Positions 54,880 to 63,465 are shown, counted from the stretch's first letter. The stretch: DNA of 64,000 nt from Candidatus Omnitrophota bacterium (GCA_018400015.1 JAGYNB010000001.1:198815-262814); one strand, 5' to 3'. Program-made: numbers and translations. The notes: generated from the sequence alone by a model not told the origin.

Positions 54880-55992
54880 ATGTTAAAAGAACATGAGTGC
54901 ATTTTAAGATGCTGTAAGTTTTCTCCATCAGGAGAAGATATAGAAAGGATAAAAGAAATTCCTTTTTTTTCTTTTAACTGGTCTAGCGTTATTTGGGAAC
55001 TTGGTCGTCAGCAGGTTTTGCCATTAGTTTATTTTAATCTCAATAGAATAATTCAGGATAAGAAATTGGATTTTACTTTGCCCGCTGTACTTAAAAACAA
55101 ATATTATTCCACAGCAGCGGTCAATATGAAATTATGGCAGGAATACCGTAGTATTAATGAGTTATGTATTCAGAGAAAAATCAGGATTGTTGGCTTAAGA
55201 GGTATTATTTTTTCTTATACGCTTTATCCTGTTAATGCGTTACGAAATTTAAGAGATATAGATATATTAGTTCAGGAGAAAGATATCTTTTCAATAAGAG
55301 ATATTCTCATTTTAAACGGATATCGGCATGTTCCTTCGCCAGGTTTTTTTGCTTACGATATCAAAAATGAATGCGGAACTAATTTTGTTAAAAATTGCGG
55401 AGCAATAAATATTATCCTTAATGTTCATTGGTCCTTGGCTTCAAGACGTCCGTATAGTCTGTTTTTGCCCGAATTGTGGGGTAGGGTTAAAGAAATAAAA
55501 ATTGATAATGTTGTTGTATCGGTTTTATCAGCAGAAGATAATGTTTTGTCGTTAGCTCTGCATTTAAGAAGACATTGCCGTTCCTTGTGCTTAAAATATA
55601 TATTCGACATAAAAGAGGTTATCGAAAAAGAAAAGGATATTGATTGGGATTATATATACAAGTATTCAAGAATAAATCATATCAGAAATACCGTTTATTT
55701 CTCGCTTTATATGTGTAGAACGCTTTTTAATACAATGAATATAGAGAATCAAGTTATAAGATTTAACCCCGGAGCGCTTAGAAAGAAATTAATAAGGTTA
55801 ATTATTAATAAAGAGAATTACTTTTACCATAACTCTTTTAAAGGAATCATGTTAAGATTATTGCTTTTTGATAGAGTGATAGATATTGTTGTTTATTTAT
55901 TTCGTGTTAGCTTTATTGAGAGATTGGTATATAATAAATTGTTTACAGCTGGATTTTTGAGAAAACTGTTTTCAAAGCGGACAAAGTCATGA
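54880..55992 (+). CDS. putative nucleotidyltransferase of the PF14907-like family seen in kinase-associated lasso/RiPP clusters
   Basis: 370-aa ORF. Conserved acidic residues in an LRDIDILV region are consistent with a minimal nucleotidyltransferase fold. The assignment rests on recollection of the family. Confidence 0.45.
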   Translation: MLKEHECILRCCKFSPSGEDIERIKEIPFFSFNWSSVIWELGRQQVLPLVYFNLNRIIQDKKLDFTLPAVLKNKYYSTAAVNMKLWQEYRSINELCIQRKIRIVGLRGIIFSYTLYPVNALRNLRDIDILVQEKDIFSIRDILILNGYRHVPSPGFFAYDIKNECGTNFVKNCGAINIILNVHWSLASRRPYSLFLPELWGRVKEIKIDNVVVSVLSAEDNVLSLALHLRRHCRSLCLKYIFDIKEVIEKEKDIDWDYIYKYSRINHIRNTVYFSLYMCRTLFNTMNIENQVIRFNPGALRKKLIRLIINKENYFYHNSFKGIMLRLLLFDRVIDIVVYLFRVSFIERLVYNKLFTAGFLRKLFSKRTKS

Positions 55993-55994
55993 TA

Positions 55995-56023
55995 TTGACA
56001 TATAAATATGGATATGATACTAT
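55995..56023 (+). promoter_or_regulatory. sigma-70-like promoter for the RiPP-like operon
   Basis: TTGACA (55995-56000), a 17-nt spacer and TACTAT (56018-56023) lie ~40 nt upstream of the 56061 start. Confidence 0.35.
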
Positions 56024-61855: not shown

Positions 61856-62627
61856 TCTTTGCAAGACATATAATCAGGTTCTAGACTTGAGAAGTTTTCT
61901 TTCTAATCCGATAAAGAGAACAAAAAACATCCTTGTTTTAGATAACATTAGTTTAGATATCCGGAAAGGAGAGTTGTTCTGCATTTTAGGGCCCAATCGA
62001 AGCGGGAAAAGCACACTTTTGAAAATATTGGCAACTTTAATTACGCCTTCTACAGGAACATGTTATATCCAAGATAGAAATATAGTTAAACACGCCTCCA
62101 GTATAAAAAAGATTATTAATATCGTTAGCGGGGAAGAAAGAAGTTTTTATTGGCGGTTAACAGGCAGAGAAAATCTTTATTTTTTTGGGCGTTTTTATAA
62201 TTTAACGAGAAATCAAATTAATAGGCGGGTTTCAGAATTATTCGATCTATTAGAGATTAAAGATCCAGATATCAGATTTCAGGAATATTCTAGTGGGATC
62301 AAACAAAGGATGGCTATTGCCAGGGCGCTTTTAAACGACCCGGAAGTTATTTTGATGGATGAAGTTACAATGAATCTCGATGTTCATATAGCTGATAAGA
62401 TTAAATGTTTTATAAAAGAAGAATTGGTAACAAAGAGGAATAAAACTGTTGTTTATACCACGCATAATATCAATGAAGCGCAGGAGATGTCTTCCGGATT
62501 GGCCTTTATGGTAAAAGGCGCAATAAAGAAAATTTATGATTGTAAAGAATTAGAGGATTTAAGAATTAAGGGCAACGATTCGTTAAAAAATGCGTATATT
62601 AAGTTAATTGAAAATTATGCTGATTAA
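61833..62627 (+). CDS. ABC transporter ATP-binding protein
   Basis: Walker A GPNRSGKST, the signature SSGIKQRMAIARAL and Walker B ILMDE are present. Confidence 0.8.
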   Translation: MYQIKVVNLCKTYNQVLDLRSFLSNPIKRTKNILVLDNISLDIRKGELFCILGPNRSGKSTLLKILATLITPSTGTCYIQDRNIVKHASSIKKIINIVSGEERSFYWRLTGRENLYFFGRFYNLTRNQINRRVSELFDLLEIKDPDIRFQEYSSGIKQRMAIARALLNDPEVILMDEVTMNLDVHIADKIKCFIKEELVTKRNKTVVYTTHNINEAQEMSSGLAFMVKGAIKKIYDCKELEDLRIKGNDSLKNAYIKLIENYAD

Positions 62628-63465
62628 TATCGTGAAGAGTATAACTCAGTTTTTTATTAAGTTATCGGCGGTTGCCAAGAGAGATTTCTTGATTTGGTCA
62701 AGTTATCGTTTTGCTTGTGGTATACAGTTTTTTGCAGCAGCAGTTGCCATTTTAGTATGTTATTTTATTACAGATATTATTAGTTCCAATCTTATTTTTT
62801 CCCAGGCAATAAAGTCTAAATATTCGACGGATTATTTTACTTTTGTTTTTGTCGGATTTGCCTTTTCTCAGTATTTTCTTGTATCTTTATATTCCTTTTC
62901 CCGTTTTCTAAGGCGTGAGCAGATGATGGGGACATTTGAAGCGCTTATTTTGACGCCTTCAAGCCCCACAGTAATTATATTAACTATAAGCATTTGGCAT
63001 TTTATAATCAGCTCTGTAAGTATTCTAGCTTATCTATTTGCCGGCTTTGTCATATTCAATATGGATTTTAATCAAGTTAATATTATTTCATCTCTAGTTA
63101 TTTTTGTGTTGACTTTTCTTTCTGTTGCCGGAATCGGCATGATTTCCGCAAGTTTCGTTGTTTATTTTAAAAGAGGTGATCCCATAAGTTTTTTTGGCGC
63201 TCTTTTTCTAAGCATAGCCGGAGGCGCGTTTTTTCCTACGGAAGTTTTCAATAAATTTATTGATAAGGTTTCATATTTTTTGCCTTCGACCTATTCTTTG
63301 AGAGGTATGCGTTTTGCGTTATTTAAAGGTTATAATTTATTCATGCTTAGAGAGGAAATTATTTTTCTTTCAGTTTTTACGCTCATTTTCATGACAGTAG
63401 GTTTGGTTTGTTTTCATTTTTCGGTTCGTAAGGCAAAGCAAGACGGCACACTATCGCATTATTAA
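62608..63465 (+). CDS. ABC-2 type transporter permease
   Basis: Six TM helices are predicted. The gene overlaps the ATPase gene. Confidence 0.6.
   Translation: MKIMLINIVKSITQFFIKLSAVAKRDFLIWSSYRFACGIQFFAAAVAILVCYFITDIISSNLIFSQAIKSKYSTDYFTFVFVGFAFSQYFLVSLYSFSRFLRREQMMGTFEALILTPSSPTVIILTISIWHFIISSVSILAYLFAGFVIFNMDFNQVNIISSLVIFVLTFLSVAGIGMISASFVVYFKRGDPISFFGALFLSIAGGAFFPTEVFNKFIDKVSYFLPSTYSLRGMRFALFKGYNLFMLREEIIFLSVFTLIFMTVGLVCFHFSVRKAKQDGTLSHY

Follow-up and report, generated by a model that had tools for sequence, protein, structure and literature searches.

Lasso-type leader machinery and two radical SAM enzymes, without a lasso cyclase, in an operon of a Candidatus Omnitrophota bacterium

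A 64,000-nucleotide stretch of DNA from a Candidatus Omnitrophota bacterium (GCA_018400015.1 JAGYNB010000001.1:198815-262814), hereafter called the window, was analyzed for an operon at positions 54880-63465 that resembles the gene clusters for peptides that are made by ribosomes and modified after translation (RiPPs). Ten open reading frames (ORFs) lie there in the same direction on the plus strand, and adjacent genes either overlap by 1-23 nt or are separated by 4-82 nt. As read from the sequence, the operon combines a precursor with leader and core, a RiPP recognition element (RRE) and a B2 leader peptidase of the lasso type, two radical S-adenosylmethionine (rSAM) enzymes and an ATP-binding cassette (ABC) exporter of the ABC-2 type, and it contains no lasso cyclase.

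The translated ORFs were scanned with Pfam and NCBIfam hidden Markov models (HMMs), and scores are given in bits against the curated cut-off (Table 1). A first-pass annotation of the same DNA, made from the sequence alone, had counted nine genes in a set that holds ten; all the ORFs it listed were real, lay where it had placed them, ran in one direction and mostly overlapped. Its assignments of a PF14907-like nucleotidyltransferase, a PqqD-like RRE (B1), a B2 transglutaminase-like peptidase, an ABC ATPase and an ABC-2 permease all held above the cut-offs, and the 61-aa ORF that it had called precursor-like has a conserved leader in the lasso register and a variable core. The 336-aa enzyme, which it had described as an rSAM/SPASM protein, is an rSAM protein by score, while the SPASM model failed, although five C-terminal Cys are conserved in a twitch/SPASM-like domain. 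Likewise, the 607-aa enzyme described as a B12-domain rSAM protein passed the Radical_SAM model but not the Pfam B12-binding model, and it showed full-length similarity to B12-rSAM families.

Relatives of the operon were found on the metagenomic contigs L001-L004, among which L003 (Logan ERR7850085) and L004 (Logan ERR15087771) carry full loci. The window precursor reads MSKNRAKAKIIKEKKV-FVEPCMEKQNYISDFGA-TSTGSILVVTSVVSGVVGGVLFGAWVSS. Its leader comprises residues 1-33, with an N-terminus rich in Lys followed by FVEPCMEKQNYISDFGA, which was assigned to positions -17 to -1, and its core TSTGSILVVTSVVSGVVGGVLFGAWVSS has 28 aa. The precursors of L003 (...KKS-FIEPRMYKEEYIANFGA-SATMAVVGGVVGAVVGAPVGLGAAAVGAAVGVVVGGVVW) and L004 (...KKP-FMEPRMDKEQYLASFAL-SVTAVVVVAAAVGAVVAN) have cores of 39 and 18 aa. 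Core length is therefore hypervariable (18-39 residues across the three loci), while the leader is conserved and has the motif F[VIM]EP[CR]M.K..Y[IL] in common. Counted back from the boundary between the conserved and the variable part, F-x-E-P-x-M occupies -17 to -12. In lasso leaders the motif YxxPxL occupies the stretch from -17 to -12, and position -2 is Thr or, rarely, Ile or Val (PMC10368454). The three leaders have Phe and Met in place of the Tyr and Leu of this motif, and Gly or Ala at -2.

The three cores use only Val, Gly, Ala, Ser, Thr, Leu, Ile, Met, Phe, Trp, Pro and Asn; neither Asp, Glu, Cys, Lys nor Arg occurs in any of them (window, L003 and L004). They are uncharged, rich in Val, Gly and Ala, and begin with [T/S]-x-T, so that Thr stands at core position 3 in all three, whereas a C-terminal Ser is found in the window precursor only. 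A lasso macrolactam joins an Asp or Glu at core position 7-9 to the new N-terminus, and would be chemically impossible with cores free of Asp and Glu, wherever a cyclase might be encoded. Sactionine and ranthionine (thioether) bridges are excluded because the cores have no Cys, and a sactipeptide or ranthipeptide was rejected for the same reason. When the three cores were pooled, Gly pairs at i,i+4 numbered 7 against 2.8 expected (p~0.005), and pairs of small residues (G/A/S) numbered 22 at i,i+4, where 15.7 were expected (p~0.007), and 9 at i,i+2, where 17 were expected. These statistics rest on three cores and are dominated by the long one from L003; thin as they are, they would favor an alpha-helical glycine zipper over a beta-helix of alternating D and L residues. 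No NHLP or Nif11 family was detected in the Pfam and NCBIfam scans of the 61-aa ORF. Judged by its leader and core, the 61-aa ORF is a genuine RiPP precursor.

All ten genes occur in L003 and L004 at 28-56% identity to those of the window, in the order PF14907 protein, ~300-aa protein, small ORF, HprK-like protein, PqqD, rSAM, B2, 600-aa rSAM, ABC ATPase and ABC-2 permease. The co-conservation that the first-pass annotation had proposed as a test was found. L002 keeps the K-PqqD-rSAM-B2 part and L001 the K-PqqD-rSAM part, where K denotes the HprK-like gene; in L002 this gene is split into overlapping ORFs at 22-339 and 336-857 (22-857 as a whole), which is due to a frameshift or an assembly error. 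Because the same ten genes stand in the same order on two independent metagenomic contigs, and a core of them on a third, the gene set, compared by sequence, is far beyond chance. The window-type subfamily was found on five contigs and is extremely rare.

The absence of a lasso cyclase, also part of the earlier claim, was confirmed within the window: no Asn-synthetase family was detected among its ten ORFs of at least 479 aa. An Asn-synthetase-like gene just past the window had been considered as the observation that would overturn the claim, and the ORF that begins at 63471 turned out to be a PMT_2 glycosyltransferase. According to precomputed Pfam calls, PF00733 is missing within 10 kb on either side in L003 and L004, and it is also missing in the more distant loci L096 and L094.

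The bounds 54880-63465 had been given for the operon, but the conserved unit extends upstream into 52024-54161 and downstream into the ORF from 63471. Orthologues of the transglutaminase-like gene directly flank the operon in L003 (E 1e-72) and L004 (E 1e-82), on the opposite side. Those of the GT4 glycosyltransferase lie beside it in L003 (E 1e-165) and L004 (E 1e-137) at differing positions, and full-length orthologues of the PMT_2 gene adjoin it in both. In each of the three full loci these genes form one block with the operon, but in three different arrangements, and the outer flanks are not the same. The three are probable accessory genes of an extended cluster, and the conserved unit thus goes beyond 54880-63465. 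The glycosyltransferases were counted into the system because B12-rSAM, PMT_2 and GT4 co-occur repeatedly at the Pfam level, including in L096. Downstream of PMT_2, L004 alone carries a fusion gene of a GT2 glycosyltransferase and a radical SAM protein (13877-15206).

Table 1. Genes of the operon and of its flanks in the window (scores in bits, against the curated cut-off where two values are given)
Feature	Position	Strand	Basis or remark
Transglutaminase-like protein, membrane-anchored, 323 aa	52024-52995	+	Pfam Transglut_core 22.6, borderline
GT4 glycosyltransferase, 391 aa	52986-54161	+	Glycos_transf_1 82
Pseudouridine synthase gene	54158-54847		Between the transglutaminase-like/GT4 genes and the operon
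PF14907 (NTP_transf_5) nucleotidyltransferase-fold protein	54880-55992	+	137.5 vs 31.2, pass
309-aa protein with N-terminal signal or anchor sequence	56061-56990	+	Weak DUF6263, 22.5 vs 26.7
Precursor ORF, 61 aa	56983-57168	+	No family match; leader 56983-57081, core 57082-57168 including stop
HprK/PEPCK-fold P-loop protein (K-like)	57251-58189	+	Direct scans: generic P-loop matches only
PqqD-family RRE, discrete (B1-like)	58211-58531	+	PF05402 48.3 vs 23.4, pass
Radical SAM enzyme, 336 aa	58531-59541	+	Radical_SAM 90.3 vs 29.5, pass; SPASM 14.4 vs 21.5, fail
Lasso-type B2 leader peptidase	59546-60013	+	PF13471 (Transglut_core3) 30.1 vs 26, pass; NF033537 (lasso_biosyn_B2) 40.5 vs 33, pass
Class-B (cobalamin-type) radical SAM enzyme, 607 aa	60032-61855	+	Radical_SAM 60.2, pass; B12-binding 19 vs 32.1, fail
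ABC transporter ATPase, DrrA-like	61833-62627	+	ABC_tran 92, pass; TIGR01188 174
ABC-2 type permease	62608-63465	+	ABC2_membrane 35.1 vs 26.9, pass
PMT_2 (GT-C) glycosyltransferase, 5' part	63471-64000, runs off the window	+	PMT_2 24.8 on the 176-aa fragment

Just upstream of the extended cluster, the plus strand at 46134-51484 carries genes for a TolC-like OEP, an HlyD-like adaptor and a MacB-type ABC protein, followed by CorA. The TolC/HlyD/MacB-type genes are probably unrelated to the operon because they were not seen beside it in L003 or L004, though a role in export across the outer membrane is conceivable. A scan for promoters and terminators returned no more sites than shuffled sequence did. 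Two fusions elsewhere in the window, one of a lipid A acyltransferase (15938-17872) and one of a GT4 with a heptosyltransferase (17869-19962), point to a diderm organism. Almost all genes in 1-64000 are on the plus strand, and the GC skew is positive throughout. A tRNA-Asn(GTT) gene at 41297-41569 (+) has its anticodon loop split by a 197-nt group I intron (41322-41521), which matches Rfam RF00028 with 87 bits over the full-length model; ARAGORN detects this tRNA in intron mode only. A fluoride riboswitch (RF01734, 56 bits) was found at 42367-42430 (+), directly upstream of a 129-aa ORF of crcB size (42449-42838).

The protein first described as an HprK-like kinase was not recognized by the direct HMM scans, since Hpr_kinase_C (PF07475) scored 13.5 against 33.3 and TIGR04352 scored 29.1 against 200, both failing. 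A word-indexed search of 5.8 billion proteins returned the protein itself and two relatives only. When 1.84 billion representatives were searched exhaustively with a profile, five close and 772 remote relatives were retrieved, and a metagenome scan with the alignment recovered only L002 again. This alignment holds 40 sequences; besides the window protein it comprises three close relatives and 36 remote homologues found by profile; HprK_rel_A was detected in 39 of them, HprK_rel_B in 32, HPr(Ser) kinase in 29 and ScmC in 23. An AlphaFold2 (AF2) model calculated from it reached a predicted local distance difference test (pLDDT) of 81 and a predicted template modeling score (pTM) of 0.81. All 50 matches listed by Foldseek for this model against the PDB were PEPCK or HprK/P, and the profile aligned residue by residue to the HprK/P of L. 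casei (1JB1, E=7.5e-8). The fold and family assignment of the earlier annotation thus stood by profile search, predicted fold and alignment to HprK/P, whereas the last catalytic Asp is missing.

The catalytic motif of lasso kinases such as PadeK, ThcoK and BsfK is H-G-G-G-K-S-D-D, and its last residue, D187, is important for BsfK activity (PMC10368454). Residues H130, G145, G148, G150, K151, S152 and D168 of the K-like protein match H148-G163-G166-G168-K169-S170-D186 of BsfK with identical spacing, which accounts for seven of the eight motif residues. The eighth position, 169, is Arg in the window protein and Arg, His, Gly, Arg or Ser across the five members of the subfamily, whereas the equivalent residue is Asp in lasso kinases and HprK/P, in 35 of the 36 aligned remote homologues and in the loci of the wider family. 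According to sequence comparison and model, the K-like protein has the fold and the nucleotide-binding site of an HprK-like kinase, and its catalysis may be impaired or altered. BsfK phosphorylates Ser3 of the core and also Thr3 in an S3T variant, and B1 stimulates the reaction (PMC10368454).

The 336-aa rSAM enzyme carries CX3CX2C at residues 12-19. In an alignment of 63 homologues, Cys 135, 231, 250, 310 and 313 are invariant and Cys251 is present in at least 90%. The SPASM domain has seven Cys, in the motif CX9-15GX4C...CX2CX5CX3C...C, and binds two auxiliary clusters. Five Cys (231, 250, 251, 310 and 313) are kept in the C-terminal domain of the 336-aa enzyme, a pattern that fits a twitch-like or reduced SPASM domain. 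Its best solved relative is SkfB, residues 112-320 of which align to profile positions 5-211. By the position of the motif and by the SkfB alignment, the enzyme has no N-terminal RRE domain; without an RRE domain of its own, it must depend on the discrete PqqD protein, whose best NCBIfam model is lasso_PqqD_Bac (41.3 against 80). The solved relatives of the 336-aa enzyme are SkfB, BlsE, PqqE, YydG and anSME, among which YydG scores 48.8 bits and SkfB, BlsE and PqqE score higher. These structural relatives do not single out one chemistry for the enzyme. MftC, PqqE, ScmE and ScmF are among the best model matches. As the enzyme lacks the GYW motif, the idea of a cyclopropyl synthase was rejected.

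Class B rSAM methyltransferases have a B12-binding domain at the N-terminus, ahead of the rSAM domain. For the 607-aa enzyme, the leading model was TIGR03975 (RiPP maturation radical SAM C-methyltransferase; E=4e-46, 157.7 against 281.85, below the cut-off). PhpK, BchE, HpnR and others matched over residues 175-540, and the nearest solved structure is OxsB. The orthologues from the window, L003 and L004 share SRGCYWNKC[AV]FC, that is CX4CX2C instead of the usual CX3CX2C (61029-61055 in the window, residues ~333-341). By similarity, the enzyme is a probable C-methyltransferase of the cobalamin type. The remaining proteins also retained recognizable features. In B2, the motifs SC[LV][KR].S and GH[ASV]W, with the Cys and the His, are conserved in seven homologues, and the PF14907 protein keeps a G...D-x-D motif in all three orthologues. 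The stop of the 309-aa protein gene overlaps the precursor start. Its orthologues are found only in L003 and L004, with 28-29% identity; a word-based search returned only the protein itself, a profile search of the PDB returned none, and a single-sequence AF2 model had a pLDDT of 35.

The operon was compared with the phospho-lasso clusters of the Bsf, paeninodin and pseudomycoidin type. They have in common a discrete PqqD RRE, a B2 that passes the NCBIfam lasso model, PF14907, an ABC exporter, an HprK-fold protein with the same H...GxxGxGKS...D spacing, the leader motif at -17 to -12 and a hydroxyl residue at core position 3, the BsfK target. Indeed, the non-cyclase genes of the bsf cluster are N, A, K, B1, B2 and the ABC exporter (PMC10368454), and PsmN acts on the phosphorylated residue (PMC9266682). 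The window differs in having no cyclase, no Asp or Glu in the core, two interleaved rSAM genes, a kinase-like protein that has lost the last Asp, Gly or Ala at -2, Phe and Met in the leader and an uncharged Val/Gly/Ala stretch as core. The first-pass annotation had referred to paeninodin-type clusters, but the hallmark C-terminal Ser that serves as the paeninodin-type acceptor (PMC9266682) occurs in only one of three precursors. Since two defining features fail, the cyclase and the acidic ring-closing residue, the locus as sequenced is not a lasso cluster.

The same combination of proteins is found in the SynChlorMet (SCM) cassette, which has the HprK-like ScmC, the PqqD-like ScmD and the rSAM-SPASM proteins ScmE and ScmF. 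Against the SCM equivalog models, the window scored 79.5 (ScmF) and 78.2 (ScmE) against 400 and 22.4 (ScmD) against 100, all failing; no literature was found on the SynChlorMet cassette, which is itself uncharacterized. Proteusins of the polytheonamide type resemble the window in their long Val/Gly/Ala-rich cores that start with Thr, in a B12-rSAM C-methyltransferase-like enzyme beside a second rSAM and in a product predicted to be membrane-active. They have an NHLP/Nif11-type leader and a PoyD-type epimerase. The window instead has a lasso-type leader, cleavage by B2 with a discrete RRE, an rSAM that is not demonstrably PoyD-type and the i,i+4 periodicity. The cyclopropylglycine RiPPs of TvgB and TigE share an rSAM with a C-terminal Fe-S domain and Val/Ile/Gly-rich precursors, with a second rSAM in the tig cluster (PMC10878394). 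Their cyclopropyl synthases strictly conserve a GYW motif (PMC10878394), and the window differs from them in cores that are not TVGG/TIGSVS repeats and in its leader machinery. About 300 discrete RREs of the lasso type beside rSAM enzymes were listed by RRE-Finder and treated as false positives (PMC7470986). In the literature searched, on PF14907, on SynChlorMet and on HprK in combination with RiPPs and radical SAM enzymes, this architecture was not described.

The 336-aa rSAM has 95 homologues at E<=1e-20, and a genome scan with it gave at least 16 loci with a full-length match at 30-41% identity. These loci came from metagenome-assembled genomes labelled Nitrospiraceae/Nitrospira, Acidobacteriota, Trueperaceae, Competibacteraceae, Spirochaetia and Bifidobacteriaceae. 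By iterative search, HprK-like and PqqD genes were detected beside the rSAM gene in 11 of the 16 loci listed, PF14907 in seven and B2 in five. A wider cassette of B2, precursor, HprK-like protein, rSAM, PqqD and PF14907 was defined from loci L005-L010, L013 and L016-L019, and no lasso cyclase was found nearby in them. Nine of the wider-family loci have an upstream small ORF with the pattern [FY]xxPxLx3Gx5Tx followed by FFGxF[S/T]P, for example ...W-E-E-P-K-L-A-FVKPTLTKQGALQEITA and then GFFGSFTPPSV. In the leaders encoded ~1 kb upstream of the rSAM match (L005-L010, L013 and L017-L019), a second W-x-x-P-x-L repeat often precedes the motif. In L006, three short rSAM-like fragments on the minus strand (987-1139, 4133-4405 and 7475-7798) lie upstream of the intact cassette and may be what is left of duplicated copies.

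The 17-residue register of the window leader is that of the nine wider-family precursors, YxxPxL(-17..-12)...T(-2), and the cassette also shares a homologous rSAM, the HprK-like protein, PqqD and the lack of a cyclase with the window. However, its leaders are canonical YxxPxLx3Gx5T, its cores are short (7-14 residues, FFGxF[S/T]P), its kinase keeps the DD pair intact, and it has another gene order and no B12-rSAM, ABC-2 exporter or 309-aa secreted protein. The wider family has no name, as none of its proteins except B2 reaches an NCBIfam cut-off.

Two further pairs of loci were found through outgroup kinases. L096/L097 (L096 1374-17014) carry B12-rSAM, PMT_2, PF14907, an anchored protein of 152 aa, a precursor of 51 aa, an rSAM with the full seven-Cys SPASM, an HprK-like protein (Pfam ScmC), two PqqD side by side, B2, GT4, a phosphodiesterase, one more PqqD, PF00953 and ABC-2/ABC genes, as well as an amine oxidase. 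The L096 precursor (...KKE-FLEPEMKKGQKFNEIIS-SCGCSNCGCSACW) has the leader FLEPEMKK in the same 17-residue register, and its core SCGCSNCGCSACW is Cys-rich and has 13 residues. The FxEPxM.K leader and the 17-residue register are thus common to the window and L096 while the cores are entirely different, which is how a RiPP family behaves. L094/L095 combine an HprK-like protein, a 2-oxoglutarate (2OG)-Fe(II) oxygenase, two precursors and PqqD (L094 1543-4379), the L094 precursors being tandem, 53 aa long and ending in GFAGSPPVMN and GFNGSPPICL. Since these loci carry a 2OG-Fe(II) oxygenase, the K/PqqD module is used with a third kind of enzyme.

Several explanations of the locus were compared. 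That it is an ordinary (phospho-)lasso cluster, whose cyclase lies just past the window or elsewhere in the genome, has a negligible chance of being right. It would explain the lasso-like register of the leader and why N, A, K, B1, B2 and the ABC exporter correspond exactly to bsf without its cyclase gene (PMC10368454), but the cores offer no Asp or Glu for a macrolactam, the next gene downstream is the PMT_2 glycosyltransferase, PF00733 was found neither within 10 kb in L003 and L004, nor in L096, nor among the large window ORFs, and, with 7-14 residues, the cores of the wider family are too short for threading. The short FFGxF[S/T]P cores of that family are conserved across phyla and could suggest a peptide-derived cofactor or signal resembling pyrroloquinoline quinone (PQQ) or mycofactocin, which are also made with PqqD and rSAM-SPASM proteins; the MftC, PqqE and ScmE/F models among the best rSAM matches are in agreement with this. 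The cores of the window subfamily, however, are long and purely aliphatic, their length is hypervariable, and a dedicated ABC exporter and a secreted partner accompany them. Since, in addition, no cofactor-using redox enzyme is conserved nearby, such a product is highly improbable.

It is hardly more probable that the 61-aa ORF is a single-pass membrane protein left unmodified in an operon for envelope glycosylation or transport, even though its C-terminal half resembles a transmembrane helix with GxxxG motifs, its neighbors include GT4, PMT_2 and ABC-2 genes, and the window has lipopolysaccharide genes at other places. Against this, the length of the hydrophobic part ranges between 18 and 39 residues whereas the leader keeps the exact lasso register, the ORF is always beside a PqqD RRE, B2 and an RRE-less rSAM, and in L096 the same leader precedes a 13-residue Cys-rich core that is not membrane-like. 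A beta-helical pore like polytheonamide or gramicidin deserves more weight but is still unlikely. In such a pore the 336-aa rSAM would be an epimerase that creates the D/L alternation, and the B12-rSAM would make residues of the tert-leucine type. The uncharged Val/Gly/Ala-rich cores starting with Thr or Ser, and an rSAM beside a B12-rSAM nearest to RiPP C-methyltransferases, agree with it; the rSAM epimerases PoyD and YydG act on Val and Ile (PMC9266682), and the solved relatives of the 336-aa enzyme include YydG. This idea is weakened because small residues are enriched at i,i+4 and depleted at i,i+2, as in an alpha-helical glycine zipper and not in a two-residue repeat. Moreover, the similarity to YydG is confined to the rSAM core and exceeded by SkfB, BlsE and PqqE, and the leader is of neither the NHLP nor the Nif11 type.

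We therefore favor, with a probability of roughly 0.7, an operon that would mature and export a non-lasso ribosomal peptide handled by lasso-type leader machinery. This supports the first-pass interpretation of a peptide altered by radical SAM chemistry instead of being threaded, with cross-linking, methylation and epimerization as candidate reactions. Several points weigh against this interpretation. The SPASM and B12-binding domains score below the Pfam cut-offs, the K-like protein has lost the residue that matters for BsfK activity (PMC10368454), and Gly or Ala at -2 is unlike the Thr, Ile or Val of B2 substrates, the cleavage site being placed by register only. Full precursors number only three, a thin sample also for the periodicity, and a hydrophobic 61-aa ORF could alternatively be a small membrane protein.

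On the favored interpretation, the PqqD-like RRE would bind F-x-E-P-x-M (-17 to -12) of the Lys-rich leader, as its homologues suggest, and would present the precursor to both the 336-aa and the B12-type rSAM, neither of which has an RRE. On the core, these enzymes may then act at unactivated carbons, with C-methylation and one additional radical modification as the most likely reactions; the B12-rSAM would C-methylate aliphatic side chains and the smaller rSAM would add the other change. The HprK-fold and PF14907 proteins would correspond to the tailoring enzymes K and N of Bsf- and Psm-type lasso clusters. If active, they might act on Thr3 by phosphorylation or another decoration, although the K-like protein, without its last Asp, is perhaps a weak kinase or a mere nucleotide-binding partner. 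B2, aided by the RRE, would cut off the leader after residue 33, and the ABC-2 transporter would export an uncharged, membrane-active peptide of 18-39 residues resembling a glycine zipper. Outside the cytoplasm, the secreted 309-aa protein could conceivably handle or neutralize the peptide as a carrier or immunity factor, and the GT4, PMT_2 and transglutaminase-like proteins might decorate it, with glycosylation by GT4 and PMT_2.

The product is probably an undescribed kind of modified peptide. More tentatively, the locus might be the founding member of a RiPP class in which a lasso B1/B2/K-like/N module works with a twitch/SPASM-like rSAM and a B12-rSAM to give an uncharged, C-methylated glycine-zipper pore former, glycosylated via lipid-linked GT4/PMT_2 and served by a dedicated periplasmic protein. 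This class would in turn belong, as a single branch, to a much larger family without a name, made up of cyclase-less systems with lasso-type leaders, which includes the FFGxF[S/T]P cassette of several phyla, the Cys-rich L096 type and the 2OG-oxygenase L094 type. We rate the locus, an RRE-dependent, radical-SAM-modified RiPP, as a good lead for genome mining rather than a conceptual surprise.

Lasso B1 and B2 proteins serve as class markers in genome mining, and lasso-type RREs beside rSAM enzymes appear here as coherent, conserved systems that have their own lasso-leader precursors and different products. The locus and its relatives provide a concrete set of precursors and enzymes for finding new radical SAM chemistry on unactivated aliphatic residues, and they are a natural test case for the portability of the leader-removal module B1/B2. 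They may also point to ultra-hydrophobic, membrane-active peptides of a new type, made by a diderm bacterium that is uncultivated.

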